Assembly (NCBI GenBank): GCA_050084515.1 | Contig: CM114271.1 | Location: 41,912,001 to 41,976,000, forward strand | DNA from: Blasia pusilla | Taxonomy: Eukaryota | Length of the DNA: 64,000 nucleotides | Direction of reading: 5' to 3' | Notes under the pieces: model-generated | The model's input: only the letters and a program-made list of their open reading frames with translations | Told to the model about the DNA's origin: nothing | The model's database searches: none | Shown here: positions 11,130-64,000 of the stretch, piece after piece | How the letters are laid out: each line of letters begins with the position of its first letter | How positions within the stretch are numbered: position 1 is the stretch's first letter | Program-made: the position numbers and the translations under genes

Positions 11130-12560
11130 AACTTAACCCATCCGCATCCTGGTTCAACCAACCTGGCCTATGAACCACCTCAAACTCATACTCCTGTAGT
11201 AATAGACCCCACCTAGCAAGCTTTCATGTAAGCTTGTCGGACTCCATCAACCACCTCAACGGCTGATGATTAGTGATAAGTGTGAAAGGGTTGCCGAATA
11301 AATAGCACATGAAATGTGCCACGTCCCACACTACAGCCAAGCACTCTCCCTTGTAGGAGCTATACTTTGCCTCTGTTATGTTGTTCAATTGGCTCGCGTA
11401 AGCCACAACGAACTCCCTCTCCTTGTCATCCCTTTGAGTAAGCACTGCTCCTAGATCCAACATGCTCCAATCCGTATGTAACTAGAATGGGGGACCCCTA
11501 ACCGATCTCTGTAAAATGGGTGAGGACGTCATCCTGTCCTTGAGCTCTTGAAATGCTTGCTCCTAATCATCTCCCCACAACCAAACCTGATCAAGTCTCG
11601 TCAATAAGGTCAAAGACTTTGCGATCGCACTAAAACCCTTGACATACCGTCAATAGAAGTTCGTCAGTCCAAGAAACGCTCGGACTCAACTCACATCTGT
11701 AGGGCATGGAATCTGCGTAATAGCCTCTACCTTCGTCTGCTAAACGTCTAACACACTCAGGTATATGGTGTGTCCCAAGTACTCAATCTGCTCCTGAAAG
11801 AATCTGCACTTGCTTCGATGTAACTTCAGTCCATGTAACTGCAATCGCCAAAATACCTCCTCCAGGTGTCGCTCATGCTCCTCAACCGTGGAACTGAAGA
11901 TAAGAATATTATCTATGTAACATCGTACAAACTCCAAGCCAGCCAGAATCCTATCCATCACTCTCTGAAACTCTGCAAGCGCATTCTTCAACCCAAATGG
12001 TAAGAACCGCCACTGATACAAGCAATCTCTCCCGAACCGATCTATCCCCCAGAAATGTTGTCTTCTCCCTGTCCTCCAACCTGATAGGAAGTTGATGATA
12101 GCTAGCACGGAGATCTAAAGTACTGAAGATCTTTGCATGCCCTACCGCCTCAAAGATCTCCTCAGGAGTAGGCATGGCGTACCAATCTGACCTCGTCTGT
12201 CGATTGATAGGACGGTAATCTCCACACATCCGCCTGTTCGTCCAATTGCCATATATATCCTTCTTCACCCGCATGACTGTGGCAGATGCATACTCCCCAT
12301 GTGATAACTCCACAAGTCCTGCCTCCAACAAGTCCTGACTCATGCTCCAAATCAAGGCTCACTCCATATCAAAATACCTGTAGGGTCGACGAAAGATTGG
12401 CGTATCACTAGCCAACTCAATCTGTATCCTAAGACCCTTCAACGTACGCAAGTCTCTCATACTGAAGGCAAAACAACTGATATGCCCTCTCAAAAACCTA
12501 TGAACTCGCCGTCGTTCTCCTCCTATCAACTTGAGACCTATAACAAGCTTCCAAGTCTCC
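11130..12560 (-). pseudogene. Gypsy reverse transcriptase plus RNase H (frameshifted)
   Basis: RMCGDYRPIN, FSTLDLRASYHQ, LPFGLKNA, YIDNIL, TDWS..LGAVLTQ, ECLAVVW. Confidence 0.92.
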
Positions 12561-37600: not shown

Positions 37601-39298
37601 AACTTGAAGGTGGCATAGATAGCAGTGGATATGATTGATGCCCTAGAGGAGGAGAGAAAGGCAAGCATTAGAGAAGACCAAGGCCGTTCAAAGCAACAAA
37701 GGAAGATGAGGTTTGATAACCGAATACTGACATGATCCAGTGAAGGAGGGGGACATGGTGCTGATGTATGATAGTCGACCCCAAAAGTTTCCAGGAAAGC
37801 TGCACATTCGACTGCTTGGGCCTTATCAGCTGAAGAGCATCCAGGGGAGTGATGAGATCAGATGAGGAGCATCCAAGGAAGTGATGAGAGCAGGTGGAGC
37901 TGAAGAGCATCCAGGGGAGTAATGAGATCAGGTGAGGAGCATCCAAGGAAGTGATGAGATCAGGTGGAGCTGAAGAGCATCCAAGGGAAGCTCGAACCAG
38001 CTTGAGAAGAAGCAAGCATGGGAAGAATGTAAAGGTGGGTCTTACCTTCAAGCATGTCCAAGAGACAAGTCGAGCCTATGCCATCAATGCTGCTCAAGAG
38101 ACTTTAGTTAGGACAGGTTCAGAAGTAGATGAGGTAGAAATTTCAGGCAGTAGATGCCTTGGAGTAGATGCTTAGGGGGAGGTAGATTTGTAGGAAGGTA
38201 GGAACCCAAAATGCCAGAGAAGCCCAAGTGGGGAGAGGGCTCTCTGCTTCACTTATAAATACTCTATTGGGTTTGCTTGAAGGCGGGCATATACATGCTG
38301 TTGGCTAGTAGATACTCGATCTCTTGAGCCAAGCTAACTAGCAGAGTTATGTGCTCCCAGATCTAGGTAGTGTGTAGTGTGCTTGAAGGGGGTTGAGACT
38401 AAGAAGTTCTCTCATGTACTCTATGATTTTGTGATACACAGAAGGTAGCCCTATGAAATGAGTTCACTCCATTGCCCTGTATCTGAGTATGTGCATGATT
38501 GAGTGATGAGTTGGGGGGGCTTGATGAAGGGAGATTCTTGGAGCTGATTCAACTAATCATTCAAAAGTGTAGTGAGTGGACAAGAGGCTGTGTACCAAAG
38601 AGAGGGGATGCAAGCTTGGGTTCCAAGATTGTGCTCCACCAAGGTGTGCTTGAAAGCTTTGCATTCGCCCCACCTGAGCTTGGCCTTTGACACCAATCAC
38701 TGATTACTTCCAGGGTGTGACAACTTGGACTTCCAGGTCTCGTAAGTGATAAGAGTTAGTGAGTGGAGAGAGAGAGAAAGGGTCATGCTTGAGCTCCCCT
38801 ATAGGTAGAAGACCATGGGCTTAGCCTGTTAAGTCTCCTACTACCTGAACAAGAAGGGAGAACAAAGGATCAGCAAGGTAAGAGGAGAAGAAGAAGGTGA
38901 TTGCACTACCTGATCGGTTAGGAGTTGGGTGTACTTTAGAGGATGTCCTTGGTACATTCAACTAGTCCAAGGCAGCACATTGGAGGACCTTATGCTGCCC
39001 TGGTCATTCTTGACTGTGATTTCTAAGTAGAGTGTGCTTGTTGGGTTCCACTGGCCACTCCACTCAAAGAAAGGAAGGAGTTTTGGTTAGTAGGGTGAGG
39101 ATAGGATTGTGATACTGAAGTGGAGAGAGTTTCTCCAGCCTCTTAAGGTAAAGAGGTGGGGTTTACAACTGTTAAGGAGTACATCTTGTAGATCTGATCT
39201 TTTGATCTGGCCCTAAGCTCTTACATGGGACCGAACTGGTGGAACTAGCAACATTTTCACCTGGGTTGTGTGCTGGCCATGTATTACCTGGTGAGACA
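31681..39298 (+). mobile_element. Ty3/gypsy non-chromovirus (Athila/Tat-like) LTR retrotransposon with a truncated 5' LTR
   Basis: Partial 5' LTR 31681-32500 matches 38476-39298. 3' LTR ~38189-39298 follows a PPT. PBS TGGCGCCACCTGCCGGGA ~32504. Gag with CTRCKKEGH knuckle, protease VDGGS, RT EWVSPIVIVPKK/FIDDF, RNase H, integrase [16 protein letters not shown]. Confidence 0.93.
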
Positions 39299-42200
39299 AT
39301 ATCCTTCAAGTGTTACTACCAAGTAAGGTTGCAATATATCATGTGTTTTTGCAATGATTTCTGAAATGTGAACTCCATTGCAGAGCAGGATCTATGTGGG
39401 GCAAGGCAAGATGCAGACCAAGGTGTTAGTGGATTGTCATGACCCACCCTTGGCATGACATAAAGGAGAGTAATCTACGCTGGCTGTTCTGTCTAAGCGG
39501 TTCTTCTGGCCCAACATGAAAGAGGATGTTGCTCAATATGTGAAGACCTGTATAACCTACCAAGCAAACAGAGTTTCTTATGATAAGGAACAAGGCTTGC
39601 TGCATCCCTTGCCGATTCCAGAAGGAGCCTTGCAAAGTGTGAGTATGGATTTCATCACAAGTCTTCGGGAATCCGAGGGATACAACGCTATACTTGTGAT
39701 TGTGATCGGTTTAGCAAGTTGGCAAGATTTGTGCCGACGATGGATTCCGCAACGGCTTATACAATTTTGCAACTGTTCTTGGATGGCTGGTGGCGGGCTC
39801 ATGGTTTGCCGAGGAGCATTGTTTCACATTAAGATCCAAAATTTACCCGTGCTTTCTGGAAGTACTTATTCAGAAGATTTAAGACCACGCTGAGTTTTAG
39901 TATTGCCTTCCATCCACAAACGAATGGGCAGAATGAAAAGGTTAACTCGATCGTAAATCAGTACTTAAGGAATTAAGTGAGTGCGGATCAACGAGATTGG
40001 GTCAAGTGGCTAAGCATGGCAAAGTACTGCTACAACTTCACCAAGCATTCTGCAACTAGAAAATCTTCGTTTCTTCTAGAAAATGAACGAGAGCCAGAAG
40101 GGCCTCTTGACCTAGCCCTTTCAAAGGGTGCTACATTGGCATGGACATGACAAGCGACGGTAGAAGGTTTGTTAGTAGAGATGCGAGAACGAGAAGAGCG
40201 AGCAAGGCAAAGTCTTGAAAAGGATCAAATGAGGTACGTTAAGCATGCTAACAAGAGTCGGCGCCAAGTACGATTCCAAGTTGGGGAGCAAGTGTGGTTG
40301 AGTGTGAAGAATCTCACTCTTCTGAAAGAGTTGTTTGCGAAGCTGACTGCCAAGTATGTTGGACGGTATGTGATTATGGGGAACCCGTTTGAGGATGTGT
40401 ATACATTGGAGCTACCGGAAGAGTTCAAGATTCATCCAACCTTTCATGTGTCATTGTTGAAGAAATATCTTCAAGATAATGGGACCTTCGAGCGGAGACA
40501 AGTGTTGAGACCAAAACCGGTAACTGTGAATGAAGAACCAGAGTTCGAGGTGGAGACCATCTTGCGTTCAAGGCGTCGGGCCAACAAGTACAAGTACTTG
40601 GTTATATAGAAGGGCTACCATGTGAAGGAGGCCACTTGAATTGCATAGGCAGATTTGGAATGCGCGCAAGAGTTGTTGCGAGACTTCAAGCGGACGCAAG
40701 AGAAGCACATACGTTAGTACGCGGAGAAGCTTAGGACATGACTTGTGACCATAGGAATCTTGGGCCGAAGGCTGTTGTAACTAGAGCAGGCTAGTGTTGC
40801 AATAAAGGAATGCATGGATTTGGAGATTCGATGCTAGTGTTTCATTGCAATTTGTATGTGGTAGTGCATGGCTATGAGTCGTTCATCATATGTTTAGGAT
40901 GTAAGTCAAGAGGAGAGACAAGGAGTATTTGAGGTGAGAGCTCGTATTTGGATAAGCACCTAGAACAAGACCAAGTGTTGGATGACACTTGGGCTCGCCC
41001 TAGCGACGGCGGGGCAGATGAATCTGTCTTGGGGCTTGGGGTGATCGTACTTGTGGTAACATGAGTAAACTTAGTGACGCGCCTAAGTTGAATACGAGAG
41101 CGACCCAATAGTAATACGATTTGTGGACCGGGTAAACAAGTGTGATGTTTACAAGAGTGAGCCAGAAGAGTCTAAGGTTGCACACTTAGCTAGCTTATTT
41201 GATAGGTTAGTTCTTTGGAATGAGTCTAGGCTTATCGAAGAGGAGATGTTAATAATCCTAAGTGATGCAAAGCGACAACTTGAGACTTAAGAGGAATTAC
41301 GGACTAGCCACCAGAATGCAATTCGATGTCAAGGGGTAGGCTGCCCAGGAGACTTGACATAACAAAGGTTTGCGTTGATGAGGGCATCAACCTCTAAAAG
41401 AGGGGTGAGTGTCGCGACCCTCATGACCAAACGAGTGCCAAAGCGGAACATCGGAACACTAGCGGGCTCACACTAAGATGGTTTGCGCGTTGGAGTGGTC
41501 TCGGAGAAGAGACAAGAGACAAGACCCAAGCAAGGCTTTGCATTTCATATGTTATGATCGCGACTGAGAAACCTGGACCAAACGCGGATCAAAACTTGAG
41601 AGGAGTCAAGCCTACGAAGTGGGTTGCCAAAGGAAGGAATCCCGATTTGGGACGCCACTAGCGTTTGAGAGTTTCCGACTGTATTTATGGCCATAACTTT
41701 TAGTGCCAAGATTCGCTTGGGACGAGTAAGGATGCGTTGGAAAGCTTATGGAAAGCCGGTTTAGACTCACTAAAGATATCCGCAAATGCACTAGTAGCGG
41801 CTGAGAAACGGCTAAAAAACGACTGTAAGTAGAGTCAGGTTGAGGGCCAAAATGAAGGGCCCGACCATCCTTTCCCAAAGGTAGGGAGTGGGTGGAGATC
41901 TCCATAAGTACTAGTAAGGGGAGGTCTCCAAGGGTGCTTGGGACTTGAACCCCACTTTGGGCACTACGGGGCGGCTCAAGGGCATGGAACGGATTGGGAG
42001 TTTGGAGTTGGGCTTGAAAACCTGAACCAAGTCTATTGAGGTGAATTTTAGAGATCCCTCTTGGATTCCAACCCGTTCAATTGCTTGGGTCCCAGTTAGG
42101 AACTCGCACAAGGTCCGTTAAACAGTTCAGACCGCTAGGCGCGCAAGTGATGTTTTAGATTCTTGGACTAACCAAAAAGTCTGTTCCAAGTCTTGAAGGA

Positions 42201-47461: not shown

Positions 47462-49651
47462 TCATGTCCTCAAGGTATGGTTCTTATCTAAAAATCTATC
47501 AAGGGCCTTTCTATCATTCTCATCTAAAGTCCACGTCTTCACCAGATCCCCGCTTGTAACTTGCATGGTCACCAAGCTCACTACCATCTCAATATCAATC
47601 AATCTAGTATCTACCTCATTATATTTAAACTTGTTCTTGTTATTGCCTACTCGCTTATACCAATTACACATGACTTGGCATACATATTGGCCACCTTCAT
47701 TCAGAGGGACAGGTCTATCTAGCAAATCCACTTCATGTCTAGATCGAGTAAACTTGGCTTCATATTTCCTCCTAATTTTTGAACTTTTCCTATCCAAATG
47801 ATTTGATCACATCCACTCAAAATAGATGCCTCGTTAATATCTCTAGGCCTTGATGTCTTCCCTTTTCCTTTTCCTTTTCCTCTCCCTTTGTTTGCAGCTA
47901 ATGATGCTCGAATGGACCTGCATGGTTGAAGAACAGTTGGACCACATGCAAAGACAACAGCAATATCAGAACTAATATCGAGAATAATCTTCTCACTTTC
48001 ATCACTCTATTCTCCATGGAACTATTCCAATGAATAGATTCCCTCATCTTCCCTAAATGCTGGACCCTTTTCAATCTATCTTTTGAAAGAGAAGGATTTC
48101 CCACAAGTAGGCTAATAAAACTAGACTTGTATATCTGACTCCCCTCAAATGTAACTATAGGAGTTACTTTGTTGAGTCTCTCCTCCCTACCATGAAGTTC
48201 TGAAGACATGAATTCCTCAAAAACATGACCAACTTTATTCCCAACAACATCTATATCATTCAATCCATCATCTAGCATATCATCATCTCCAGGTAAAGTA
48301 GGACTAGTATCACTCGTGTTCTACAATGCATTATCAACAAGGTCCAAGTCGTCTCCATTTCCATCTTGAGTCAGAGGAGAAATGCTTGGTCTCTCAAGGT
48401 CTGAATCCCGAAGAGGTATAACTTCGTCTTCTGGTTCCGCCTCTTCATCAAGATCAATTTCCATGTTCCAGATAGAAATGACATCTTTCTTCCACATTTG
48501 GGTTTCTATCACCCAAGGTGTATTCCACCACCTTGTACCAATCTCTGATGTATGTGGATTCATCTCTAATCTTATGCAAAGATTTTGAGCCTCCCACAAA
48601 CCCCGCTTTAAGATATCTACAACAAGTTCATCTGTGGCAATACTATTGTAATCCTCCAAAATCATTAGTAACTAGCATGGAAGGAGAGGATGTAAGTCAT
48701 ACCAAATATGCTCCATTTTCTTATGAGCCCTTCATAATTTCAACCCTTCTATACCATAATCTAATGTAGCAATTCTGTTTAAACCTGAGACTGAATCCAT
48801 CAGAACTCAAAATCATAATTCCGCTCATAACCCGCCATCCCTCCAACTTTAGAAATGAAGATTTCACAACAATCTGATCCTGTTAATAGGAACATGAAGC
48901 AAGGGATATTTGTCTCTAAAGAGGAAAATCAATTGCACAACATAGTGACATGACATATTCACATCATGAAATGCTTGCAGACTAATCATGTTCTTTTCAG
49001 AATATATATCACTACTTAACTTCAACCACAACCTCCATAGTCGTAGGAATGATGTGATTTTTTAACACAGCATGATTCGAGTCCACAAGTCATGTTGTAC
49101 ACAATCAGGGGAAAATAAAACATCAATGTGATCAGCACAGATTGATAGGTATATCTTTGTACCCAAAGCAGAGCATCATCACGTGTTTGCAAGTCATGAA
49201 GACAAGCTTGCACTCCTCTACTTGCAACTCTCTATGCAGAGGCCCAATTCTGTATGTCCCTTCTTCTTGTATCATCAAATGTTAGATGATGTTGCTTGTT
49301 AGGATAAAGGTTGTACACCAGTTGTACGTGTTCTAAAGACGCTTTGTAAGGACCTAACATAATTGGATGGTTTGCTCTATCTAATGGGTTCAACAATTTC
49401 TTCCCACAATGAGAAGGATCTTGATCACCAAACCCTTCATAATCCCCATTAGGATATTCATGTATTGTGAATCCCCACCCTGCCCAATTCAAACCCTTAC
49501 GAGGGTGATCCCCATATGGTCCTCTATCCATATAATCTTCAAGTTTACGCCTTCGTGCATCACCATCAAAAGCATTCCCAATAGCAATGCCTACCGATTC
49601 CCTACAATTTGCATCCCCCATGGTTTTCATATCCTCCCACTGAGCCCTTAC
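47462..49651 (-). pseudogene. P-element/THAP9-like DDE transposase, 5'-truncated
   Basis: IGNAFDGDARRRKL (D), DQDPSHCGKKL (DxxH), DIQNWASA, and LTGSDCCEIFISKVGG (E, ~48840-48890) in P-type order. Confidence 0.62.
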
Positions 49652-50068
49652 CCGAGGTGCGGGAAGAGAAGAGGAAGAGAGGAAGAGAGGAGAGAGGACT
49701 ACCTTCAACCGAAAGAGATACTTTTTTTTTAAGAGAGTTTCCTATGATTTGAATAGAGTTTCCGTTGGGTTGAAGAGAGGAAACTTTTTGTGTGAATTTT
49801 TTTGCACTTTTTTGCTCAATTATTAAGCAGTCCCACAATTTTTTTTTTCCTCTTCCATATTTTGGCAACCCATCTGAGTCCGACGAGTTGCAAATTGCAA
49901 AAAATTTAGAAAACTGAAAAATGAGTAAAATCATAAGTGTGGAACCAATCACTTTTTCCATCCAAGGTTGGAAACAATCTATCATTTGCTCTCGGCTGAA
50001 TAGAGTTCAAGCTCAAAGTGAAGGTTGTGGAAAAATGAAAGTACAATTTAAAACCTCATTTTACATCC

Positions 50069-52662
50069 TCAAAGTGGTTTGTTTAAAATACTTCGCACTT
50101 CTTTGAGGGACACAATTGGTTGGTGGATTCCTACTCCTACCTCCAACTCTCTTAAAACTACCAACAACACATAGTACATGTGCTTACAAGGGAAATACCT
50201 TTTGCCACTTGTCTCTCTTTGGACAAAGTCATCACATGAACATGTGGGAAAGCAACAGATGTGCACCACACACACCCCTGTGACACTTGAATTTACAGTG
50301 TTGTTCCTGACCCAATACATCCTTCCTATTCCATTGCCACTCTGGACATCTTTCGTGGCGATGATCTCCATTTTTGCCTCCCGAGCTGATGCAATTTGCT
50401 TTGCTCTCTCCACCATTGGCCTACACATTTTGTTTCTCTTCACCCCATATCTAGACTCAAACAGAAATAGTGGATTGAGATCATCCACCTTCTCTGAGTA
50501 CATGTTGACATCAATCTTGGGTTGAATACAAAATGCAAAGGTCTCTATAATGCAAACATGCTCTGAACTTCCTCCGTGTGCAAGTCTGAAATCGACACTT
50601 GTAAGATTTTCCACTTTGTCTTGAGTGCAATTCGTACCTACGGCGATGGGCCAAATCGTGGGGGTATTCCCCGGAGCTCCAATGGCAGCCGGATAAGACT
50701 TCCGGAAAGCGCACGATTCATTTGGGAAAAAGAAGTACTTCAATTGATCCCCGGTCCTCGTGAAACGATCAAAGGTTTTGAGTCCCCAAAACCCAGGCAG
50801 TGGTCGTCCAGTCCTTGTACAATTCTTAATTAGGAAAGTGCCACATGCTCTCCTAATGCCATCAGATCCTGCCTTGCAAGTGGGTCCACGACCGGGGTTG
50901 CTCTGGGATATATGCCACCGTTTCAAGTTGCAATCCACCTCCATGACCGGAATCCCATATTGTTGAACCACCCAAGCGACCGAATGTTGCGAACTTCCAA
51001 CAACGGAGGGCTTTTGAAATAAAACATTCACTGATTTTGGAGAAGTTACTCCATCACGGATTTGGGAGCAGTCCGGGGTCCCCGAATACCTGGGCAGCGT
51101 AATTTCCTCATCCAAATCAATCACCGGATTTGTTTCTCAATGCTGCCTCTTCACATGCTTGAAGTCAAGATACTTATCTGGTCTCCACGAGTCTCGCTCG
51201 GATTGCTCTACCACCATCTGTATGGGACTTCGTGAAACGCGCCCATGAATATCCCCACCAATGTGTACGTCTTGCTCGAGGGGAGTTCCTGCTACACACC
51301 GGTCAAAGGCTTCCACAAAGAGTTTTTCATCACCAGATCTCACAACCGCCCTCACATAGAGCTCGTAGATCAAAGGCCCCCTTCCTTTTGTTATGCCTTT
51401 TGTGAGGAAGATATGGGATGCTGTAGATTGTAGGATTGCTCTTGCCTGGTCTTGTTGGCATGCCTCCACAAGTGAAATTATTTGGCATGCTTGTGACGAC
51501 CTCCAAGAGGAATGAACACTTTCTGCTCCACTTGTGTTGGGGCAGAGGGCATTTTCATGAATGTTCAATCCCTGCAACGACGGCAATGTGAGAAGGGAAC
51601 GAAAATAACTCAGAAGTCGGAGAATTAAGCTACCTGTCGGAATCGGACGGGTTGCAAGGCTGAGGCATCCCATGAACGACTTTGTGACCCGTCGGGTCCC
51701 GACGTTTTGCAACACCCAGGAACCACCTACTGCAACCCGTCCGATTCCGATGGGTTGCAAGAACCTTTGGCCACTCTGGGCTGGAAGATCCAAGTGCAAG
51801 TCATCCAAAACCCATCCGGGTCGAACTATTTCCAGGCCTTGTATGCATGTGACTTGCATACTTGTATATGGGTTGCACCAAAATTCTTGATGCAACCCGT
51901 CCGTTTCCGACGGGTTGCATACGCGGGCAACCCGTCGGTTTCCGACTGGTTGCACACTCAGAAAACCTGTCCGTTTCCGACCGGTTGCATACTCAGGCAA
52001 CCCGTCTGTTTTCGACGAGTTGCACACTCGGGCAACCCGTCTGTCTCCGAGGGGTTGCACACTCGCGCAACCTGTCGCATCCGACAAGTTGCTTGGTTTC
52101 TTCGGTTTGAAATCCCTATAGTGCCCACACTTCTCAACTTGAGCTGCAACTTTTCATATAATTCTCAGCGTGAGCTTGACAAGACAAAATAGTGAACTCA
52201 CCTGCTGCATGAAGTTTCCCCATTGTCTCATACGTACAGTCCACCAACTCAGCCAAGAGCACAACTCTTTGTACTTCCCCTCAATCGCATGTTTCCTCCA
52301 CCACCCATGAAGTTCTTCTTGGCATTCCATGGCCCGTTTCAAGGTTTTGCTGTCCTTGCAGCGTTGGAGTAGAGTGACATGCTCTGTCCTCTTATTCTCC
52401 TTGATGCAAGATTTGGTGTACCGGGTCACAGACTGTTGCCAATGGAAAGCATCCGACCTTTCCCTCTCCGGTTGAACCTCTCCAGCCCAGAACACTTCCC
52501 TGATAGCAATCCACCCAAGTTGTGCATTGTCCGCCATGAACCCATAAATTTCCGGAGGTGGCCATTTGTTTTCCTTCACCACCTCCAATAAGAGTAACCA
52601 GCACATCTTCAAACTGCCAACGTCTTCTACTTTTACTTCACAGACAAATATAGTTTTGAGTC
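50069..52662 (-). pseudogene. C-terminal half of a MULE-like DDE transposase with SWIM zinc finger (exons 52662-52202 and 51571-50069)
   Basis: GFMADNAQ, AFHWQQS, PNTSGAESVHSSW, SWIM-type CSC...PCKH. Phase-0 intron 52201-51572 (GTGAG...TGCAG). One in-frame TGA at 51137-51139. Confidence 0.75.
51892..52092. repeat. 35-bp-period tandem array of 27-bp palindromes, intronic
   Basis: GCAACCCGTCGGTTTCCGACGGGTTGC consensus plus ~8-bp spacers. Units start at 51892, 51927 and onward. Confidence 0.85.
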
Positions 52663-52716
52663 CTGAATTGCAAGATGGGCCTTCACATAACTCAAAGAAC
52701 AAAGATTGTGTCTTAC

Positions 52717-53250
52717 CCGCTCGAAGATTGGGTCGGTGTCTTGGCCCGCCAACTGCTCTGGGACAGCAGTTGGCAAGTCCACTAGAAACTCGTCGATCCG
52801 ATAGAGGTCGATTTCTTCCGCCGGGCTAAGAGACGAGGAAGACCGCTCTCGTGCTTCTTCAACGATGTCCACCATCTCCATGTTGGGGGTCCTCATGACC
52901 TCATCGTCCGTCATTTGAACTTCGGCCGTTTCCTCTATATTGATTGTGTCCGCGGACTTCATCGGGGATATTTCCTGCATCTCAACACTTTCGATTGGAT
53001 GGGCCGGGCTTTCTTCAATGGCAATCGCTTTTTCCCTTCGAGATTTTGCCAATTCTGCTCTCCTCACCGACGCGTCTATACGCTTCTTTTCACGCTTTTC
53101 CTCGTCAATCCTTTGCTTCAAGGCCTGCGATGACTTAGCCTCTGCGTTCTGTTTTTCGAGCGCCTCCTCAATACATTTTGCAAGAAGCTCCTGCTTGTGC
53201 ATATCCGCTTCCCTTTTGCGCTCCTCGATCTCTTGTTGCCTTAATCTCAT
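52717..53250 (-). pseudogene. 5' exon of cargo gene B (charged coiled-coil), separated from its 3' exon by the inversion
   Basis: E/K/R-rich ORF ending IFER|GTAAG donor at 52716. TATAAATA on the minus strand near 53630. Confidence 0.6.
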
Positions 53251-54665
53251 TGGCCGAACAAGGCTCTGGAGATGGTGACGTAGGAGTCTTGGACTTGGGA
53301 GTGAAGCTCCCAGCCTTGCTTGCTTGAGTTTTTTTCCTCGTCATTGTTCCCGAAAATGCCTCCTATGGACAAGGAAATTTGTTTCTGTGCATGATGAGTC
53401 GCCTCGAGGAGTCACCTTGATGAGTCGCCTTGCTGATGTTGCAATGAGTCGCCTTGATTAGTCGCTTGAATCGTCTCGCGATCGTTTGCTCGAATCGTCT
53501 TGCGATCGCTCGCTCGAATCGACTCGCGATGAGTCGCCGTGTAAAGCGCCCCTTGGTATCTGGTCAACTGTTGCGCGGAAGAGCAATTGAGTTCACGAAA
53601 CCAATAACCGGAAATGAGCGAACCCTCGCCTATTTATACTTTTCGAGCCGTTGGGTTGCATTGTCGTTCCGACGGCGACGTGTCGGCCGTTATGGAAGTC
53701 TGGACGTGAAAACCACCAACCCAACAGCTCCGACGGGTTGCACGCTTCCCGCGGGATCTAGGCATCCGTCCATCCTAGCAACCCGTCGGAGACCAATAGG
53801 TTGCCTCGAGGAGTCGTCTTGAGGAGTCACCTTGCTGATGTTGCAATGAGTCGCCTTGATTAGTCGCTCGAATTGTCTCGCGATCGTTTGCTCGAATGGT
53901 CTTGCGATCGCTCGCTCGAATCATCTCGCGATGAGTCCATCCTGGAAACCCATCTTAGACCGACATGTTGCGCGCCTCCACCATCCTCGGGCAACAACGC
54001 GAGGTACCCGCGCAAACCGTCGGAGACCAGGGCGTTGCACGGGTCTTGGGATAACAAGGCGGGGCACCCGCGCAACTCGTCGGAGGCCGACGGGTTGCAC
54101 GCTTCCTTCATGTAATCGTTACAAGGCGAGGAACTTGCGCAACCCGCTGAGGCCGATGGGTTGTGCGCCTCCCCTATCTTTGGGCAAGAAGGCGGGGCAC
54201 CCGGGCACTCGTCGGAGGCCGACGCGTTGCATGCTTCCTTCATTTAAGTGTTACAAGGTTAGGCACTTGCGCAATCCATCCGAATCCGACGGGTTGCACG
54301 CTTCCCTTATCTTGGGGTAATAGGCGAGGTACCAGGGCAACATGTCCGTTAGCGACAGGTTGCACGCTTTTCTATCCCTCCGGTAACAATGCGACAACGC
54401 ATAGTTCCGAGGCAACCTTTAACAATCCGACGGGTCATAAGATCTACCCTGAGTTGGACAATCCCGCAAAAGTACCCAACGATTGGTTGCCTTAGCAAAT
54501 GCAAGCGATGTATCGTGTTTGATGCTAGCAGTCACTCATATTCTGTCAGGAGAATTTAAGTCCCTATTCGCTATAAATTAAACATTCTCATTCTCATTCT
54601 CATACCCATTCCCATTTTTATCCTCATTCTTATTATTAGTCTCCTCCCGGTGGAATCTTTCGGGA

Positions 54666-56221
54666 ATGGATAATTATGTGAAGCTCACTTATGGCAGTCA
54701 TCTAGTGGCCCTTCCTCAATCAGAAATCGTTCGACCGCAAGCTCGTGAGTCTTGAAATCATAGCAGTGGATGAAAATTTTCTCTCAGTTCGATTTCTTCT
54801 CCAAATTGGAACCATCTTTGTATCCAAGGATGTTAGGGTGGACGGTACGGAGGACATAATAGGTGAGACATTCCAGCTAGTGATTGCAGACCGTAAAGTA
54901 TGGAATCTCCTACCTCTAGAAAATGGTCAATATAGAGTTTACGGCTTGCCTCTTAATTCCTCAATTTCCCAAGTAGACGGTTGAGAATTTCCTAGTGCGC
55001 CGAGCTCTACGTTTGCAACTCCTACCTTAGTAGATCAGGCATTGATTCCAACTTCATACGCTCGTAACAATGTTGTACTTCCTGAAGACATTCCGAATGT
55101 CGTCAACCTCAGTGGATCTGTCGGACATCAACCGGGCCCTCTGTCCGCCTACTCGTTCCTCTTGCGAGTATCAGGCAATAGATTTCTATTGTCTCTGGCC
55201 TTGAAAATGTTCAAGCACATTCTTGTCGACGAACTGCCACCCACGTACGATGGTAATTGCATTTTTGAGTTGCCTCCACTTGCTGCTCCTGCTCAAAAGA
55301 AAGATGTAGGACGCTTGAAGGCTATGGACAGAAAGTATGATTGTCATCGATGGTGCAGGATTCAACGGACTAATGCTTCAATTCCAGATGGTCCTTGGAT
55401 TTTCTCCGGCCGCCAAAGCATTGGAGCCTTGGAGTGTAGAAGTCCAGCATGCCCGTATCTAGAGCGCAACAGGCGGGTCAATACGTCGCAATTCCCCCTC
55501 AAGAATGCAGAAACTCCATATGAGGTCAGTGCCACCATACCGCTGGATGGCCATCGATGTCCTCATTGTCAGGCATCCCCTTTCTACGTTGGAGCGTGTC
55601 CTGCATACATATTTTTCATTGTCCACGAATTTGGCTTCACGTCATAGTACACAAGGCTGGCAGTTCATGTTGGCTCCCACACTCATCCTGTGACCGATGC
55701 AATTCAGAGACACATCAAGGAGGATGTGGCGAAGAAAGTGGCCGAGGGCTACAGAAACTCTTCGGGTTCAAAGCCCGGAGTGATCAAGCTCACAACAACA
55801 TCACAAATTTGTGAACAATTTCTTGGAATCCCTGGACAGAGCGAGATCACGCCTGCTGAGGAGAAACAACTTTGGGAAAATCTCGCATTTCTCGCTGATC
55901 CTGAATGCTTCCGGAATTTGCTGCGTCAAATAAGGGTACTGGATGGAAAGACGGCCGAAATGGATGCCATTTCCAGAATCAAGGCCAACTCCAGATTTCC
56001 ATTCATTCAGAGATGGCAGTTCATGGGCCAGGGAGGCAAAGGATCCAAGGCCTATGTCTTCAAAATATCAACGACATGTCCGTCGAGTGGCCTCGATCTT
56101 ATAGATCGAATGAGGGAAGGGGAAAATCTTTACGGGAGCTGGGTAAGCTTTGATATTTTCTACAGAGTGCTGAACGGATGGTTGACAATGGGTGCTCACG
56201 TTTATGACCATGTGGAGGAGG
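54666..56221 (+). pseudogene. N-terminal half of the MULE-like transposase (GCM/WRKY-like Zn domain plus first catalytic strand)
   Basis: LPPTYDGNCIFELPP, MDRKYDCHRW, C..C...C..C...HVGSHTHP, WVSFD..RV.GWLTMGAHVYDH. In-frame stops at ~54982 and ~55645. TATAAAT near 54572. Confidence 0.72.
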
Positions 56222-56262
56222 CAATTCAGTGTAGTTTATTGACCTTGTCCCCGTTATGACAG

Positions 56263-56485
56263 GTGATAAAGCAGATGGCACTGATGGAGGGCCAGAACGC
56301 CCCAAAAATTCCACTTTGCCGATTGCGGACAATGGAGTACGTCCGCGAAATTCAGTCTGACGAGGATATTTCAAAGCTGAAACAATCGGCAGCGACAGCA
56401 TCCTACGTCGACAGCTTCCCTCCGTTCTATATTCAGCCTTACGATGAACATGGAACCGAAGGGCTGGTTACGGAGGAGGACTTGG
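56263..56485 (+). pseudogene. Next exon of cargo gene B (IPLCRL motif, possibly ParB/Srx-like), truncated
   Basis: ACAG acceptor at 56262, then VIKQMALMEGQNAPKIPLCRLRTMEYVREIQ...KLKQS, cut by the terminal-like repeat at ~56483. Confidence 0.45.
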
Positions 56486-57551
56486 AGGGGGGCTGGTATT
56501 TTGGCAGGAGAAAGGAAGAGAGGAAGAGAGGAGAGTCTCTCTTCAAAATAAAGGGCCAAATCCGCCTCCTCTCTTCAAAACTTTTTGACATATTTGAAAT
56601 TATTGTTTGCTTTCAAATTCATGAAATTTTTAGAAGAGAGTAGGCAGAGGTCCACATTTGGGCCAAACGAAACCTCCTTTTTCCAGGGGGCGAAAAACAA
56701 GTAGACATCATAAGACCACTACAAACATTTTTCCATCACTCTCCATGTGAGCCTAAATTTCTTCACATTGCCTGTCTCAGTCTACACTAAGCTGTGCCCA
56801 GGGCTATTTTTGTTGGAGGACCATTGGAAAATAATTTGACCAGAAGTAGCAATCTCATCTCAATGAAAGGTTCAAATAAAGACTCTAATGGTGGTCTCAA
56901 CAGACTACGGTGCTTTTCAAGGTTTAACTTCTCGGAATATTTGGTTGACATTATGGATTGACATCTCTTCTTGCAAAAGAAAGGCACAAGGAAATGCCTA
57001 TAAATGATTGTTGACTCTTCTTGCAGGAGGCATCAATACTCATCATACATTATGGAAAACCATTGGCAACATAGTACCAAAATGAGAATTTTTGAGCTTC
57101 CCCTATTCCCAAGTGTCTCTGAAGTATTAATGTATCATGAGACCTCACACGGATACGCATCGGGTACGATGCCAACCTCTCTTTTTGCAGGGATTGTTGC
57201 TTGCATCATGGCCTTCCCTGAATTGCCCCATAATGAATTCTCAAGACCAACTTTGTGAAATGTGAACACACAAGACGATAATTGAACCAAAAGATTGTTA
57301 GCTGTCTGGAGTAAAGAGGAACTGATGTCCCTTCATTCAGATCCTAAATTTGAGAAACCGAGAAGTTGCACCCCTCCCAATCCGTCAGAATTTTATAGGT
57401 TGCAACTCTTGCAACCCGTCGGAATCAGATGGCTTGCACCCCTTGCAAGCAAGCTCACCATAACTAAGGAAAGATTTTGAGAAGTGATTCCATTCCACCC
57501 TGCACCCACGAAGATCCAACTGGTTGGGAATCGGAAATGGCAATCCGACAA

Positions 57552-58655
57552 GTAGTAGGAATCCAGCACGTCTTAGAGAAGAAAAGAAGCCTACAATTGG
57601 TTTGATGATACTAGGGGAACGAGCCAAAAGTGAAGAAGCCCGCCAAAATGCCTCAGAAGTTGGTCTCATAGGGAAAGAGTTCGATCACTCAAGCAACCAA
57701 CCTGTCGGAATCCGATAGCTTGCGTGGAAATGGTTAAAAAGTTGCAGTGGTCAAAAAGTGAAAAGTTGCAACCCGTCGGAATCAGATGGGTTGCAAAATA
57801 AACATTGTGAGTAGCTAGACGAACACAATCGACAAGTCCAAAAAAAATATTCAGCAAACTTTTACAAACACCATCATCGTTTGAAAAATCTTGTCCTTTA
57901 TTACATCCGAAGGAAGCTCGAAAATGTATATTTGATCTAGTCTATGATTTCTTCAGCCTCGTCATCTACAAATTTACTCCTAACTCTCCTAGGTTCCTGT
58001 ACAAAAGGAATGTCCTAGGATACAAGTGGCTCCTCTGGCCGATTGTAGACGGGGATCGAAAATGTTGGCGAATTCGAGAGCCTTGGCACCCCTAGGTACA
58101 CCATAACGGTCCCATGTAACCTGATTTGAGTCCCACTGCCTTCCTCGGCAGTAAATCTTGTACGCTCTGCAAGGTAACATCCATCTAGTATCAATATGTG
58201 CTACGTCCTTGGAGACACCATCATGTCCTCAGCCCGGTAGTAGGAATCCAACACGTCTTAGAGAAGAGAGGAAGCCTAAGACTTTTTTGACAAAACTAGG
58301 GGAAGGTGCTAAAGTGAAGAAGCCCGCCAGAATGCCTGTAAAGTTGGACTAACAGGGAAAGAGTCCGATCACTCACGCAGCCAACCTGTCGAAATCCGAC
58401 ACGTTGCTTGGAAGTGGTTAAAAAGGTACAGTGGTCAAAAAGTGAAAAGTTGCAACCCGTGGCAATCCGACGGGTTGCAATATGAAGTGTCGGAGTACAT
58501 AGACAATCACAATCGATAAGACCAAAAAAGAAATTCAGCAAAATTTTACAAACACCATCATCGTTCAAAAAAATCTTGTCCTTTATTACATCTGAAGGAA
58601 GCTCGGAACTGTACATTTGATGTATTCTATGAATTCTTCTGCCTCGTCATCAAAT
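57552..58655. repeat. Diverged direct duplication (~420 bp; 57552-57975 and 58237-58655)
   Basis: Both copies begin GTAGTAGGAATCCA.CACGTCTTAGAGAAGA and are collinear. Confidence 0.8.
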
Positions 58656-58708
58656 AAGTCCTTACTCCAAAACGTTGCAGTCAAGCTGGGTCATTGAGTT
58701 CTTTGAAC

Positions 58709-60788
58709 TCACTCGTCATCGGTCGAGAGCTCTTCCAAAATTACTGTCAACCTTGCCCTCCCGATTTTCCGAATCGTGGGAAGTGACGATGGTGTCACTA
58801 CCAATGGTGGGTGTGGAACCGGAGCTGTCGGCTTCGGAGGAGAGTTGTACGCCCCAACTAGCCTATCATAATCTGCCTTTGCCTCTTTACAAAGGTCAAA
58901 CAGTTCCTGCCTTCCCTCAAGGCAGAGAATTTTCCTGCCACTCTGCCAGACGCCTCTGATACTCGCCCCTGAAAGGCCCACTAAGTCGAACACCAAGTCA
59001 CCCGGCTTTGAGCAGAGCTCAATGAGCATTTGCATCAGCGCTGGTGACTTTTCCCTTCCTCCAAGTAAGGGGTACCATTTTCCATGTAAATTCCCGGAGG
59101 GGGAATTGCATCAACTATCTAAGGTGTATCCATCCGAGCATGGATCAACTGGATCGAGGATCTGAAACACTTGGAAGTTGTGCTCGGGCCTTACAAAACA
59201 GTAGACAAAGGAGTGATCCATCTGGTAAGAAGCAGGTTGGAAAAAATGTCAACAACAAGAAAGAGCTAATTTCAGTATGCAACAACAAGAAAAGTATACT
59301 ATCAGAATGGTGACATAATGTGCAACTCGTTCCCAAAGAACTTCGCTTAACCCCAGATAACTTAGTTATAGTCATAACATTGGAGCAACCTGTCAGAGTC
59401 AGACGGGTTGTTTTACAAGTGTTTGCCATGAGCAACCTGTCGGAAGGCGACAGGTTGCTGGCTTAGAGCACCCCATGGTTGGCTAAGAGCAACCCGTCGC
59501 TTTCAGAAGGGTTGCATCATTCCAGAAACACAAGGAAAAAGCATAAGCACTTGCAATCCGTCGGGTTGCATTCACCCAATGGAGACTTGCATTCAATTTG
59601 CAACCCTTCGCTTTCAGACAGATTGCACCACCAAAGTCTCTAGCTCAAACAATCCGCCGGGTTGCATGCAAAGATGCAACCCGTTGGAGAAAGACAATTA
59701 GGATATGGATTTAGAGCCCTTACCCGGATTTGACTCGTCGTAGATCGGAGTGGGTACTCGTTCTTGATGACCCACGATTGCGCCGTCCTCCACTTCAACG
59801 ATCTCTTGACGCACTACAAGTTGAAGAGCTCGTCCTGGCTCCCTCCAGTCAAAACTAAGAAACAGCCCTTGTCATTGAGATAAGCGTCTGCAAAGGAAAA
59901 CAGGAGCGCAATCTGGTCATAAGAAAGAGGGACATTCCAGTCTAGGATACCGTGGGACAGATTCTCGTCCCACAAGCGCAACCCCGAGGGCAAATCAGCG
60001 ACGAGGAGATCCACCGCCACCTCTTCCACCTCCCCATGGACCGTCCAGGGAGCGTGCCCGTTTTGTTGAAGCTTCCGTCCCAGCATTGTCAATTTCTTGA
60101 TGGCGGGTGTTGATGCTTGGGAACTGAAACTTTTCAGCTCATCCAGAAGATTACTGCACTAAATGATGACGCTTGTCCGGGTTGTTGTTTCTCTATGTCT
60201 TCCCAAGGATGATGGAGTGTATTCCACATCCTGGTCTGCTCCCTGGGACAACCATGGCGCCTCTTGCTTCCGCTTCTCCCGAGTCTGCGGTCGGCTTGTT
60301 GGGGTCTCTATTACCTAGACTCTAGTGGAGTTTTTTTGCGGAGGACCTGGTCCGACCCTCTCTCCCCGCTCGCCCGGACGATTCGGCTCTCGCCTTGAAT
60401 TCTCAGCCTCTCTTTGGGAAGACTCGGCCTCGGAATTCTTCGATCCCCTCGCCTTGGATTTGAGACCCGTTGTAGATTTGTCCTTGGCGGTAACAACCTT
60501 GGACATCAACTCCGCTGTCTCGAGGGCTTGCTCCTCCGCATCTCCTTCGAAAAAGTCTTCAAGCTGCACAAAATTGGGGATGTTGTCCCTACCTGCGGCC
60601 ACTGCATCATAGAGAAGGCGTATATCTTCTTGGTTATGTCCTCATGGTCGTTGAAGTCCAGCCAGATCGGGCAATTCTCCACCTCCCAATCGAACATGCT
60701 TTGAGCCATCTCCATGTCGTACATGGAAAATGTCTCTCCATCAGGCGGAGAAGCCCACAATTTGTAGGCTGCCGGTATTTTTTGCCTT
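58709..60788 (-). pseudogene. Beta-class amino (N4-cytosine/N6-adenine) DNA methyltransferase-like gene, 5'-truncated (exons ~60788-59724 and 59221-58709)
   Basis: VDLLVADLPSG (DPPY-type strand) ...YLNDKGCFLV precedes GGREKSPALMQMLIELCSKPGDLVFDLVGLSGASIRGVWQSGRKILCLE, which resembles the N6_N4_Mtase SAM-binding end. Phase-0 intron 59723-59222. TAG stops and frameshifts are present. Confidence 0.72.
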
Positions 60789-63700
60789 GGGCCCAAGCTT
60801 AGGGGAGGTGAGAAACGACGCTTGACACAGTTCCTACGTGCTTATAGGAGTTGTTTTGCCTTAAGCATGAAGGAGTTGGGTGCTTTGGTTGGACCCGGTA
60901 TACGGATTGATTTGGCTAGTGATTCGCCAATCTTCCGTTGTCCCTAGCGATATAGTGATATGGAGAGGGACGTGATTCAGAGTAGGACATTAGATCTTTT
61001 GGAGGTTGGATTAGTGGAGTTGTCGCATGGAAAGTATGCATCAGCCACAGTCATGCCTGCTAAAAAGGATGTGCATGGCAACTACACGGTTAGGCGGATG
61101 TGTGGAGATTACCGTCCTATCAATCGGCAGACCAAGGCCGATAGGTATGCCATGCCTACACGTGAGGAGATCTTTGATGTGGTGGGACAGGCAAAGATTT
61201 TTAGTACTTTGGATCTTCGGGCAGGATACCATCAGTTGCCAATTCGAGAGAGTGACAAGGCCAAGACAACATTTTGGGGTGTCAACTCTCATGGCGGGGA
61301 TTGTTTGTACCACTGGAAATTCTTACCCTTTGGGTTGAAGAATGCACGTGCCGAGTTTCAGAGAGTGTTGGACAGGATCCTAGCAGGGTTGGATTTTGTT
61401 CGATGTTACATTGATGATATCTTGGTGTTCAGTAACACGATGGAGGAGCATCAGATACATTTGCAGATTGTGTTTGAGTTGTTGAAAGCTCATGGTCTAC
61501 GTTTGCATCCAGGAAAGTGTAAGTTCTTCCATGAGGATGTTGAGTACTTGGGTCATGTGATCTATCCAGGTGGTTTGGGAGTTCAACAAGCAAAGGTGGA
61601 GGCTATTGCACTTATTTCTCGTTCGGTGAGTAGAGTTCGGGCATTCATGGGATTAGCAAACTACTATCGGAGGTATGTGAAGGGATTTAGTGCTATGGCA
61701 AAGCCTTTGAACCAATTGCTGAAATCAGATAAGGAGTGGCACTAGGGAGATGATCAAGAGAGAGCTTTTGTGGAGCTCAAGGCCCAGTTGGTGACGGCGC
61801 CTATCTTGAGGAGACCTATTAGAGGGCGCCCATTTCAATTACACACTGATTGGAGTAGGTTGGAACTTGGAGCGGTGTTGACACAACATGATGATGAGCA
61901 CATGGAGTTTGTGGTGGCCTATGCAAGTCATTCGAATAATGCAACGGAGTCGCCCTACAGTTCATATGAGGGAGAGTGCTTGCCAGTAGTGTGGGCTGTG
62001 GCACACTTTAGGTGTTACTTGTTTGGCACACAGTTTACCCTTGTTATTGATCACCAGCCGCTCAAGTGGTTGATGGAGTCTGACAAGCTTAAAGGGAAGC
62101 TTGCACGTTGGGCTCTTATCTTACAAGAGTATGACTTCCAGGTGGTACATAGACCTGGAGTTGCCAACCTTGATGCTGATGGGTTGAGTAGGAACCCATG
62201 TACTAGCCAAGAGGATGCAACTGGGGCTAGATGGCATGGCGAGGTTGATGAGGAGATGATGCCAGGTTGGCATGCATCCGCCTTTTTATGTTGGTTAGGG
62301 GTGGACTCTAGTATGGAGGACCACATGACATCTTACTCTAGTCAGAGGGTAGATGGCCAGCCTTTAGATCCTAAGGTTGGAGATGGTGGTACGGATCAGC
62401 ATGATATTCATGATGATGCGTTGGTGTTGGAGTTCCTACAGACCAGCAGGGTGCTAAGCATAGTGAGTGCCAAGGAGCGAGACCGTGTTCTTCAACGTGC
62501 TAAGAGGTATTGATTGGAGGGAACACATATTCTCCGTGTGTGGGAGGATGGTAGAGTACGAGTAGTGCCGCATTTGGTTCAGTGAGAGCGCATTGTGCGA
62601 CATGCCCATGAGGAGTTGGGACATTTTGGGATAAATCGTATATATAGCTTATTCCTTGGTCAGTATTGGTGGCATGGCATGCATACTCAGGTGCACCACT
62701 TGGTGTTACGTTGTATGGTTTGTGACCGGCTGAGGGCATCATTCAATGCCCCTACACCATAGCTACATCCCTTGCCTGTTATGGGGTTGGGTTACCGTTG
62801 GAGTGTGGGCTTTGCCGGACCGTTACCGTCGACTGTACGACATTATCGATATGTGTTGGTGATGGTGGAGCACTTCTCCAAGTGGATTGAGTTGGTGGCA
62901 TTACCTGACAAGGCAAGTGAGGGAACTTCATATGCGTTTCTTGATAGAGTGCTTAGTCATTTTGGTGCACCATTGAAGTCTTGACCGACCAGTCTGAGTT
63001 TGAGTGAGTTTTAGGTCTTGTGTGACAAGGCGTTGATTGATCATCGGACCACGTCTCAAGATCATCCAGAGGCGCATGGTTTGGCTGAGCGTGTGGTTCA
63101 GACGGTGAAGAGGGCATTGCGCAAGTATGGCCTACAGAAGGGGCATCTTGGAGACTGGGATATTCAGTTGCCATGGTTAGCCATGGGGTATAGGTTCACT
63201 TGCCAAACATCCTTGGCTTCCTTCTCACCTTATTTTCTGTTATACGGCCGAGATCCAGACTTGCCCGCAGCAATTCGTTGGGAGTCTAGTCAGGTGGTGA
63301 ACCTTGATGACCCAGAGATGTGGATGAGAGTGTGTTTCTGGCGAGCTCTTTCGGAGAGTTATGCCACATGACCTTTGAGAATCTTGCCATTGCTCAACAC
63401 AAGGATACGCTGCGGTATGCAACCATTCGGGGTGGAGGTTATCGACCATCGATTTGTAGGTTCTATGTGGGGGACTATGTCTATTTGCAGCAGATTGCAT
63501 CGACAACGTTGGATGTGACGGCAGGCCGCACTATTTTACGAGTGCGCGAGGTGTTAGCTTCTGGAGTTCTCATGTTGGAGGGTCGTGATGGAGCTTTTTG
63601 GAAGGACCATGTGCGTAATTGTGCGCCATGTCATCTTCCAAATGTGGATGGTACTGTTGATCCAAGCTTAGCCATGATACGTGCTAGCTTGAGGTGCATG

Positions 63701-64000
63701 TTGTGTGGGTCTACTGGTAACGTAGCCCGTATGTTGGTGTGTGATCGGTGTTCTAGGGGTTGGCACATGATGTGTTTGACTCCACATATGGATGTTGTTC
63801 CTACTGGAAGGTGGATTTGTCCTCGATGTACTTAGGAGAGGTAGATGACTTGATCTTTGCATGATATGGATTACAAATGTGCGACTAACGATGGGGCAAC
63901 CTAGCACCCGGCCTCCTGATTCGTGCACCCAAGAAGGTAGATAGCATGTAGTAGATGTATAGGGCTACTTGGGAGTTAGAGGGACCTAACCGCGAGTTAA
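60788..64000 (+). mobile_element. 5'-truncated gypsy element of the PHD family: RT-RNase H-integrase-PHD
   Basis: RT YIDDIL (60960-61745), RNase H TDWS (61770-62513), integrase (62560-63690), intact C4HC3 PHD 63695-63835. Collinear with the minus-strand element at 6-12.5 kb. The window ends just before the expected PPT. Confidence 0.93.

Follow-up and report, generated by a model that had tools for sequence, protein, structure and literature searches.

The window analysed here is the whole stretch of 64,000 nucleotides from Blasia pusilla (GCA_050084515.1, contig CM114271.1, positions 41,912,001 to 41,976,000), and all positions below are counted from its first letter. On the minus strand, at 58709-60786, it contains a spliced gene whose C-terminal part resembles the beta-class DNA amino-methyltransferases (MTases). 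This gene is designated the MTase-like gene. The remnant of a transposase that resembles those of Mutator-like elements (MULEs) lies on the same strand at a distance of ~6 kb.

The MTase-like gene is composed of two coding parts separated by an intron. The upstream coding block (59724-60641, minus strand) can be translated in one reading frame from 60641 to 59724 when stop codons are read through, and it encodes a disordered basic stretch followed by the catalytic-like half of the MTase-like domain. A further upstream coding remnant (60642-60786, minus strand) is in another frame, within the open reading frame (ORF) 60506-60841. The intron (59222-59723, minus strand) is 502 nt long and of the GT..AG type, with the donor GT at 59723/59722 and the acceptor AG at 59223/59222. 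Both exon-intron junctions are in phase 0. Downstream of the intron, the frame continues from 59221 to the terminal TGA (58709-58711). This last coding exon (58709-59221, minus strand) has 170 codons plus the TGA stop and encodes the half that resembles the S-adenosylmethionine (SAM)-binding block.

The DPPY-like strand (motif IV) is VDLLVADLPSG, encoded at 59982-60014 on the minus strand, in which DLPS replaces DPPY/SPPY. The SAM-like block, REKSPALMQMLIELCSKPGDLVFDLVGLSGASIRGVWQSGRKILCLEG, is encoded at about 58910-59056 on the same strand. Its motif I-like part, GDLVFDLVGLSGAS at 58961-59002, stands for the canonical GDxVLDPFxGSGTT, and the downstream exon reads REKSPALMQMLIELCSKPGDLVFDLVGLSGAS...GRKILCLEG. 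The order on the minus strand, catalytic-like block first and SAM-like block second, is the permuted order of the beta class. The same order of motif IV before motif I is observed in proteins of the moss Ceratodon purpureus and in a metagenome locus, L008. The initial annotation, made from the sequence alone, had described a spliced minus-strand gene with a DPPY-like strand ahead of a SAM-binding block. The translation, the intron and a break of RNA reads at the acceptor bear this description out.

Decay, copy number and transcription

Three RNA-seq runs and one whole-genome shotgun (WGS) run from the same species were aligned to 58652-61000 at a likeness of at least 88%. The copy in the window is decayed. 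There are four premature in-frame stops (TAG at 60315-60317, 60159-60161 and 59814-59816, and TGA at 59111-59113) and several frameshifts, including one near 60626. The 5' end of the frame is cut at 60782-60786, where it adjoins the 5'-truncated pol of a gypsy retrotransposon on the opposite strand. Loose ends of WGS reads at 60782-60786 point both ways (249 and 228 reads behind, 884 before). Therefore, the breakpoint with the gypsy element is private to this copy, in which the gene has lost its 5' end.

Three of the four stops and the frameshifts are either private to the window copy or in the minority among the genomic copies represented by the WGS reads. At 59112, C>A is seen in 73 of 74 reads, so that most copies have TTA (Leu) where the window has the TGA. 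Positions 60159 and 60161 are G in most reads, corresponding to CAC (His) in most copies at the second TAG. Extra bases at 60316, 60330 and 60383/60386 are present in most reads, and an extra T behind 60626 in 105 of 192. The stop at 59814-59816 is outside the listed WGS differences, and the count of three is based on the other stops; the BLASTP alignment with a Ceratodon protein (P0005) runs straight through it. Among the differences listed for the last exon, 12 of the 20 best-supported majority differences fall on third codon positions (P = 0.013). The window copy is a dead, 5'-truncated member of a multi-copy gene family.

The summed WGS depth is ~750-1140 over 58652-59046 and ~350-560 over 59679-60784. 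It is 120-180 over most of the intron and ~470 over the palindrome-rich part of the intron, 59442-59520. Only 13 of 10,998 WGS reads are at least 99% alike to the window copy, corresponding to ~0.87x. Compared with this value, the exons represent ~400-1300 copy equivalents, a rough figure, which suggests that the MTase-like family is present in hundreds to ~1,300 copies.

The RNA reads, which cover 58652-59283, have their first mate on the plus strand, and the reads of the gypsy reverse transcriptase (RT) have the opposite orientation. Assuming a stranded library of the usual type, both transcripts are sense. None of the RNA reads is at least 99% alike to the window copy. Thus, the transcripts come from paralogs. 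RNA depth is nil in eight intron bins (59284-59678) of the 30 bins. At the acceptor, 59223, read alignments end abruptly in all three runs (13, 12 and 20 reads), and their continuation is 99-100% consistent. The loose part, reverse-complemented by hand, is in frame and stop-free and resembles a diverged end of the upstream exon. Such a consistent loose end indicates that the predicted acceptor is used in expressed, diverged copies. The joint 59724-59221 itself was not found on the window copy in the three RNA runs; the expressed copies are too diverged upstream to align there.

The stretch 59047-59125, beside the private stop codon at 59111-59113, includes a C/G run (…TTCCCCCTCCGGG…), at which the alignment of DNA as well as RNA reads is lost and 1-nt insertions appear. 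Across it, the WGS depth falls from ~1000 to ~150.

Homology to beta-class amino-methyltransferases

A HMMER (phmmer) scan of 1.84 billion representatives with the last exon returned six proteins at E<=1e-3. Four of them are relatives with the same odd motifs, and one is a bona fide bacterial-type MTase fragment. The sixth (P0003) consists of near-identical repeat units with 21 matched stretches; it looks spurious and was excluded from the family counts. One relative is a 758-residue hypothetical protein of C. purpureus, M758_9G084500 (P0005). Two Ceratodon paralogs with chromosome-style locus tags (1G and 6G) are 89-92% identical over the domain region, and the Ceratodon ORFs are full-length, with 758-803 residues.

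In BLASTP, residues 209-301 of the window upstream block align with residues 435-525 of P0005 (E 8e-9), and the last exon aligns with residues 588-646 (E 6e-13). As both halves are colinear on M758_9G084500, they belong to one gene. Another relative, P0009, covers 60107-59739 in tblastn. A further 36 short fragments, 61-203 residues in length, came from the profile search; their sources are long ENA contigs, Logan and JGI, and one fragment bears the name 'DNA modification methylase' in its source. Three intron-bearing metagenome loci, on contigs of only 1.2-2.4 kb, represent a divergent subfamily. L008 has an intron at the same protein point as the window gene and a further intron inside motif I. 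This shared intron position gives the family the appearance of an old eukaryotic gene family rather than of a recent insertion from bacteria. The upstream exon had no homolog among 433 candidates, all of them longer proteins, which is weak evidence. A pattern-limited scan of IMG/VR for a viral origin gave 22 pattern matches and no relative.

A long Pro/Ser-rich basic linker, probably disordered, precedes the MTase-like domain in L008 (1-427) and in P0005 (residues 230-400). These linkers carry KRVK/KRK stretches that resemble nuclear localisation signals. A helical N-terminal region of ~230 residues is conserved among the Ceratodon proteins as well, and it could be assigned to no family. A fold search with VIA-align matched only the N-terminal helices (Z up to 6.1) and is uninformative on the MTase-like part.

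The Pfam family PF01555 is the one to which the domain is related. Residues 57-112 of the last exon match positions 165-220 of the 221 positions of PF01555 (E 1.8-2.4e-4, 21.6-22 bits). When 41 rows, including two read-through pieces of the window gene, were scanned singly against Pfam, PF01555 was found at E<=0.01 in 28 of them (best 6.1e-7) and was the sole recurrent family. It is also precomputed in the database for 7 of the 36 relatives. The window exon aligns weakly to the Protein Data Bank (PDB) sequences of M.RsrI and DpnA. A family profile searched against all PDB sequences gave four hits at E<=10, all of them beta-class MTases: two DpnA entries (4.4e-4 and 4.6e-4), CcrM (0.17) and TTHA0409 (0.2). 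The CcrM alignment spans the motif IV strand to the motif I/SAM block, and hmmsearch aligned the Ceratodon motif IV strand to VDLIFADPPYNL of CcrM. The comparison of 43 family rows with six annotated phage PF01555 MTases by hhalign gave a probability of 97.4% (E 1.2e-11), against 1.4% in the reversed-template control. With a permissive setting (mact 0.05) the alignment extends over 218 columns and the whole template, and ADAPEG is placed on DPPYEY. NCBIfam returned far-sub-threshold hits, restricted to the SAM block, to adenine MTase models (CcrM, PRK13699 and PRK11524), from which no specificity is assignable.

On sequence comparison, the SAM-block half can be regarded with good confidence as homologous to PF01555, and the catalytic half is very probably homologous as well, judging from its position and colinearity. 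The beta-class N6/N4 amino-MTase homology proposed in the initial annotation is thereby upheld by the Pfam scans, the PDB profile search and hhalign, whereas the gathering score of PF01555 is missed by the window exon (21.6-22 vs 26.7 bits). Since motifs IV and I and the Pfam cutoff fail, the domain is classed, by its sequence, as a divergent derivative of the beta-class amino-MTases and not as a member in good standing.

The beta-class amino-MTases with PF01555 (DpnA, CcrM, M.RsrI, TTHA0409 and phage orphan MTases) have the same order, in which the motif IV strand leads and the SAM block comes at the end. The (K)-helix, GDxVxD, G-x-S and the R-x-x-x-G-x-E block are recognisable in the family as in these enzymes. 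Unlike them, the window family is eukaryotic and has spliceosomal introns, a long N-terminal extension and hundreds of copies. It also differs from them in motif IV (DLPS/DAPE/EYPD) and motif I (DLSASTGAS), and its scores are at or under the curated cutoff.

A chance resemblance of meaningless frames in repeat DNA would be compatible with the sub-cutoff Pfam match of the window exon and with the failure to obtain a usable structure model. However, relatives are conserved elsewhere, as three annotated moss proteins and 36 short fragments. PF01555 recurs among the rows scanned singly, hhalign separates the family clearly from its reversed control, and the RNA reads indicate splicing. A resemblance by chance is thus extremely improbable and close to refuted.

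Replacement of motifs IV and I

The canonical motif IV is (D/S/N)PP(Y/F/W). The corresponding tetrapeptide is DLPS in the window, DAPE in all three Ceratodon proteins and EYPD in L008. The second-position Pro and the aromatic residue are absent in all three lineages seen, and the general form in the family is D/E-x-P-x-G. Motif I is DLVGLSGAS in the window and DLSASTGAS in the family consensus, and the canonical DPFxGSGTT is present in none of 37 rows. The column counts over these 37 rows are D35 L33 S26 A30 S31 T34 G30 A34 S36. The Phe and the first Gly of motif I are absent from every row, and the SAM-block half is otherwise strongly conserved across them. The initial annotation had regarded DLPS and DLVGLSG as departures from consensus that make activity uncertain; the departures prove to be family-wide.

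In CcrM, the Asp of DPPY and its first Pro form hydrogen bonds to the target amino group, and in the modelling of the rotifer enzyme N4CMT the motif Tyr stacks on the target base, as described in PMC10406627. The change of SPPY to APPA abolishes N4CMT activity, as reported in PMC8885841. As motifs IV and I are non-canonical in every member seen, the family is unlikely to encode an active writer of N4-methylcytosine (4mC) or N6-methyladenine (6mA). The variable motif IV and the conserved SAM half would fit a protein that has kept the fold, and perhaps the cofactor pocket, with a function other than canonical base methylation.

METTL14 is an MTase-fold pseudoenzyme of the MT-A70 family, which has EPPL for DPPW and is the partner of an active paralog. 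The window family is similar to METTL14 in that the fold and the cofactor-pocket region appear to be kept and the catalytic tetrapeptide is degenerate, which by analogy suggests a scaffold or nucleic-acid-binding role. In contrast to METTL14, it belongs to another MTase family, and no active partner is known.

The initial annotation had proposed that a Mutator-like family mobilises a 4mC/6mA writer, which may be a relative or a source of host enzymes such as Marchantia DN4MT1. The PF01555 homology in permuted order, the strong conservation of the SAM-block half in 37 rows and the transcription and splicing of paralogs are what an active N6-adenine or N4-cytosine MTase would show, and the nearest NCBIfam models, although weak, are those of adenine MTases. 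Bryophytes also hold an acquired 4mC writer, as reported in 10.1101/2021.02.12.428880. Motif IV, however, differs by lineage as if unconstrained, in addition to its loss of the aromatic residue and the second-position Pro. The Phe and the first Gly of motif I are missing throughout, the APPA change abolishes the activity of N4CMT, and the window copy itself is dead. Neither does the family point to N4CMT. The N4CMT chains (PDB 8S9M/N/O as given in PMC10406627) are not among the family-profile PDB hits at E<=10, which are DpnA, CcrM and TTHA0409. In the phmmer search with the exon, the matches at E<=1e-3 were limited, the spurious P0003 aside, to the four family clusters and a single fragment of bacterial type. 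No specific tie to N4CMT was found in the PDB profile search, and a kinship with DN4MT1 is hypothetical. Active methylation by this family has a slim probability. Of the proposal on mobilisation, the highly repeated family and the palindromes shared with a MULE-like remnant stand, and the 4mC/6mA writer does not, in view of motifs IV and I.

Bdelloid rotifer N4CMT and Marchantia MpDN4MT1a/b are likewise PF01555-type domains in eukaryotes, and Marchantia is also a bryophyte. N4CMT keeps the catalytic SPPY according to PMC8885841, which the window family lacks. In the traits by which N4CMT and DN4MT1 act as writers, the family resembles neither. These are single or duplicated host genes with activity shown in the reports on them, whereas the window family is highly repeated and transposon-associated.

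Association with a Mutator-like element and putative role

The MULE-like transposase remnant (50069-52825, minus strand) is composed of a core ORF (52154-52825), a gap (51617-52092) with 35-bp tandem palindrome units, and a C-terminal ORF (50069-51136), next to which there is an in-frame stop at 51137-51139. The C-terminal ORF contains a CxC...CxH SWIM-like finger (PF04434, E 0.0047, 16.9 bits, under the cutoff of 19.6). In a feature search, which provides a lead only, the nearest Atlas clusters to the core ORF were MULE/ZSWIM at 0.93, and all ten best Atlas hits with a family fall in one family or clan.

The same palindromic motif is found around both genes. The motif GCAACCCGTCGG, with one mismatch at most, has 29 matches in the window against 0.06 expected, and none of 100 shuffles reaches 29. 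Twenty-eight of the matches are within 49880-59687, and the single far one is at 17048. Six are in the intron of the MTase-like gene, three in its 3' flank (57411, 57768 and 58467), one at 49880, 11 in the gap of the transposase remnant (51644-52058) and seven in 53730-54297. The palindrome unit consists of GCAACCCGTCGG, a few bases and CCGACGGGTTGC. Therefore, the palindromes common to the intron, the flanks and the MULE-like neighbour, as described in the initial annotation, are confirmed. The palindrome is absent from all nine metagenome loci examined, as expected for other species.

Other repeats accompany the palindromes. The 3' flank of the MTase-like gene (57399-58651) contains three exact palindrome units and a duplicated segment. 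This segment of 415 nt occurs twice, at 57552-57966 and 58237-58651, 685 bp apart and with 85% identity, directly downstream of the gene, and each copy carries one exact palindrome unit. About five units of 35 bp, every one of them a GCAACCCGTCGG palindrome pair, are arrayed in tandem at 51880-52092; the array is in an open frame, but it probably lies in an intron of the transposase remnant. A palindrome-bearing repeat block (53398-54376, no strand assigned) between the transposase remnant and a plus-strand ORF set has units of 58-71 nt and a 138-nt pair. The 138-nt direct repeats (53398-53535 and 53800-53937) show 93% identity and have short GAGTCGCC/GATCG-type sub-repeats.

In view of the high copy number and the shared palindromes, the gene is best read as transposon-borne. 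It is probable that the family represents a repurposed MTase-fold accessory protein of a DNA transposon, which has probably lost catalysis. Its C-terminal domain of ~230 residues goes back to a beta-class (PF01555) DNA amino-methyltransferase of prokaryotic or phage type and is laid out as catalytic half, intron and SAM-binding half, with the chemistry-defining motifs IV and I replaced. The carrier transposon would most likely be the Mutator-like family of the nearby transposase remnant, which shares the GCAACCCGTCGG palindromes in its non-coding parts. The accessory role could be the binding of DNA or of a cofactor, aiding transposition or countering silencing, and would not be the writing of 6mA or 4mC.

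The link between the MTase-like gene and the MULE consists of the shared palindromes and adjacency only. The gene could instead be outside the Mutator-like element, as a gene fragment from the host or from another transposable element that was amplified by Pack-MULE-style capture, or as a mere neighbour of the transposase among nested transposon debris, in which case the palindromes would be an independent small repeat that spread over the entire area. The greater depth of the palindrome-rich 59442-59520 relative to the rest of the intron indicates that the units also occur elsewhere, and the Ceratodon relatives are without a transposase domain. The region is a mosaic, with a truncated gypsy element at 60786, the duplication with 685-bp spacing, the stop-bearing transposase remnant and unexplained plus-strand ORFs. 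No terminal inverted repeats (TIRs) or target site duplications (TSDs) that enclose the genes were found there. On the other hand, the conserved intron of its own, the long N-terminal region and the full-length Ceratodon ORFs are unlike captured fragments. The exons are better kept than the intron among hundreds of copies. All but one of the palindrome matches are confined to 10 kb with both genes, in the non-coding parts of both. That the gene is not part of the Mutator-like element is rather unlikely.

Several points weigh against a repurposed, non-catalytic accessory protein of a Mutator-like element. Regarding homology, the match of the window exon is below the PF01555 cutoff, and so are most relatives, the best scored of which, P0008, reaches 26.5 bits. 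The confident stretch of the hhalign alignment is limited to the C-terminal 62 columns, and the motif IV half aligns only with the permissive setting, or with P=0.03 alone. AlphaFold2 models of P0005 from 8-row and 41-row alignments had a mean predicted local distance difference test (pLDDT) score of 38.1 and 43.3, respectively, and only residues 580-650 reach pLDDT 70-86. The N-terminal half is represented by five lineage samples only. Regarding the element, PF10551 (MULE) had no match in ORF 52154-52825 at E up to 1 or in the ORFs of 50069-51640 at E up to 0.1. No inverted pairs of at least 40 nt were found in 49000-61000, nor any by self-BLAST; one end is lost at the 60786 breakpoint, so that this absence carries little weight. 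With the right end missing and no TIRs or TSDs, membership in the same element is not shown. Regarding catalysis, the inactivity is inferred from the motifs alone. The retained Asp/Glu, the Pro and one Gly of motif I would leave room for unusual chemistry or SAM binding, and the strong conservation of the SAM block suggests that the cofactor site may still matter.

For an accessory protein of this kind, the nearest functional analogy would be an accessory gene of a Mutator-superfamily element. In VANDAL elements, the VANC anti-silencing proteins bind non-coding regions of the element, as described in PMC10398659. The arrangement in the window is similar to that of VANDAL in having a second gene beside a MULE-type transposase and a short motif repeated through introns and intergenic DNA. 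The binding sites of VANC are short motifs repeated in the element. VANC is not known to have an MTase fold. There is no sequence relationship between VANC and the window family, in which palindrome binding is putative. By this analogy, the MTase-derived protein might read the GCAACCCGTCGG palindromes of its own element via a retained target-recognition region, and shield the element from silencing or guide its transposition. It could be non-catalytic or unconventionally catalytic, and such elements could have spread PF01555 genes among bryophytes before the host 4mC writer arose. This more specific proposal has a low probability.

Cytosine-5 DNA methyltransferases are carried by retrotransposons of dinoflagellates and charophytes, fused into polyproteins and with intact catalytic motifs. 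These retrotransposons are likewise mobile elements with a domain derived from a DNA MTase. The window family differs from them in its amino-MTase-type domain, its degenerate motifs and its location beside a DNA transposase. Searches of open-access text returned no paper on an N6/N4-MTase-like gene carried by a plant transposon. An acquired PF01555 enzyme is known to have become an epigenetic writer in two eukaryotic lineages, of which one is a bryophyte. Here, a PF01555-derived family in moss-like genomes reaches hundreds of copies, is transcribed and spliced, and is found beside a Mutator-type transposase. It raises the question of what a transposon gains from an MTase fold stripped of its canonical catalytic motifs, and it may indicate a route by which such genes move and diversify within plant genomes. 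The interest is in the family, since the locus in the window is a dead copy.

Most of the window consists of the debris of nested transposons. An ORF set on the plus strand (54667-56643), located between the two minus-strand genes, is preceded by a TATA-like box and contains stretches rich in Cys and His as well as two in-frame stops; no Pfam or Atlas assignment was obtained for it. By eye, ~56100-56259 is reminiscent of a MULE transposase core in its first half, and this would imply a transposase split by inversion; the impression was not relied on. Coding remnants of other long terminal repeat (LTR) retrotransposons (RT, integrase and gag-like) are located at 11951-12358 (minus strand), 19148-24605 (plus strand) and 32880-40609 (plus strand). 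The 5'-truncated Ty3/gypsy pol next to the MTase-like gene (60786-63835, plus strand) encodes RT (RVT_1 from 60948), RNase H and integrase, followed by a PHD finger (PF00628, E 2.4e-10). A piece of this gypsy element, 60849-60977, is 76% identical to 12350-12478 on the opposite strand. The RT part of the truncated pol is highly repeated, with a WGS depth of ~1150, and is transcribed in sense at 65-98x in the three RNA runs, far above the MTase-like family.

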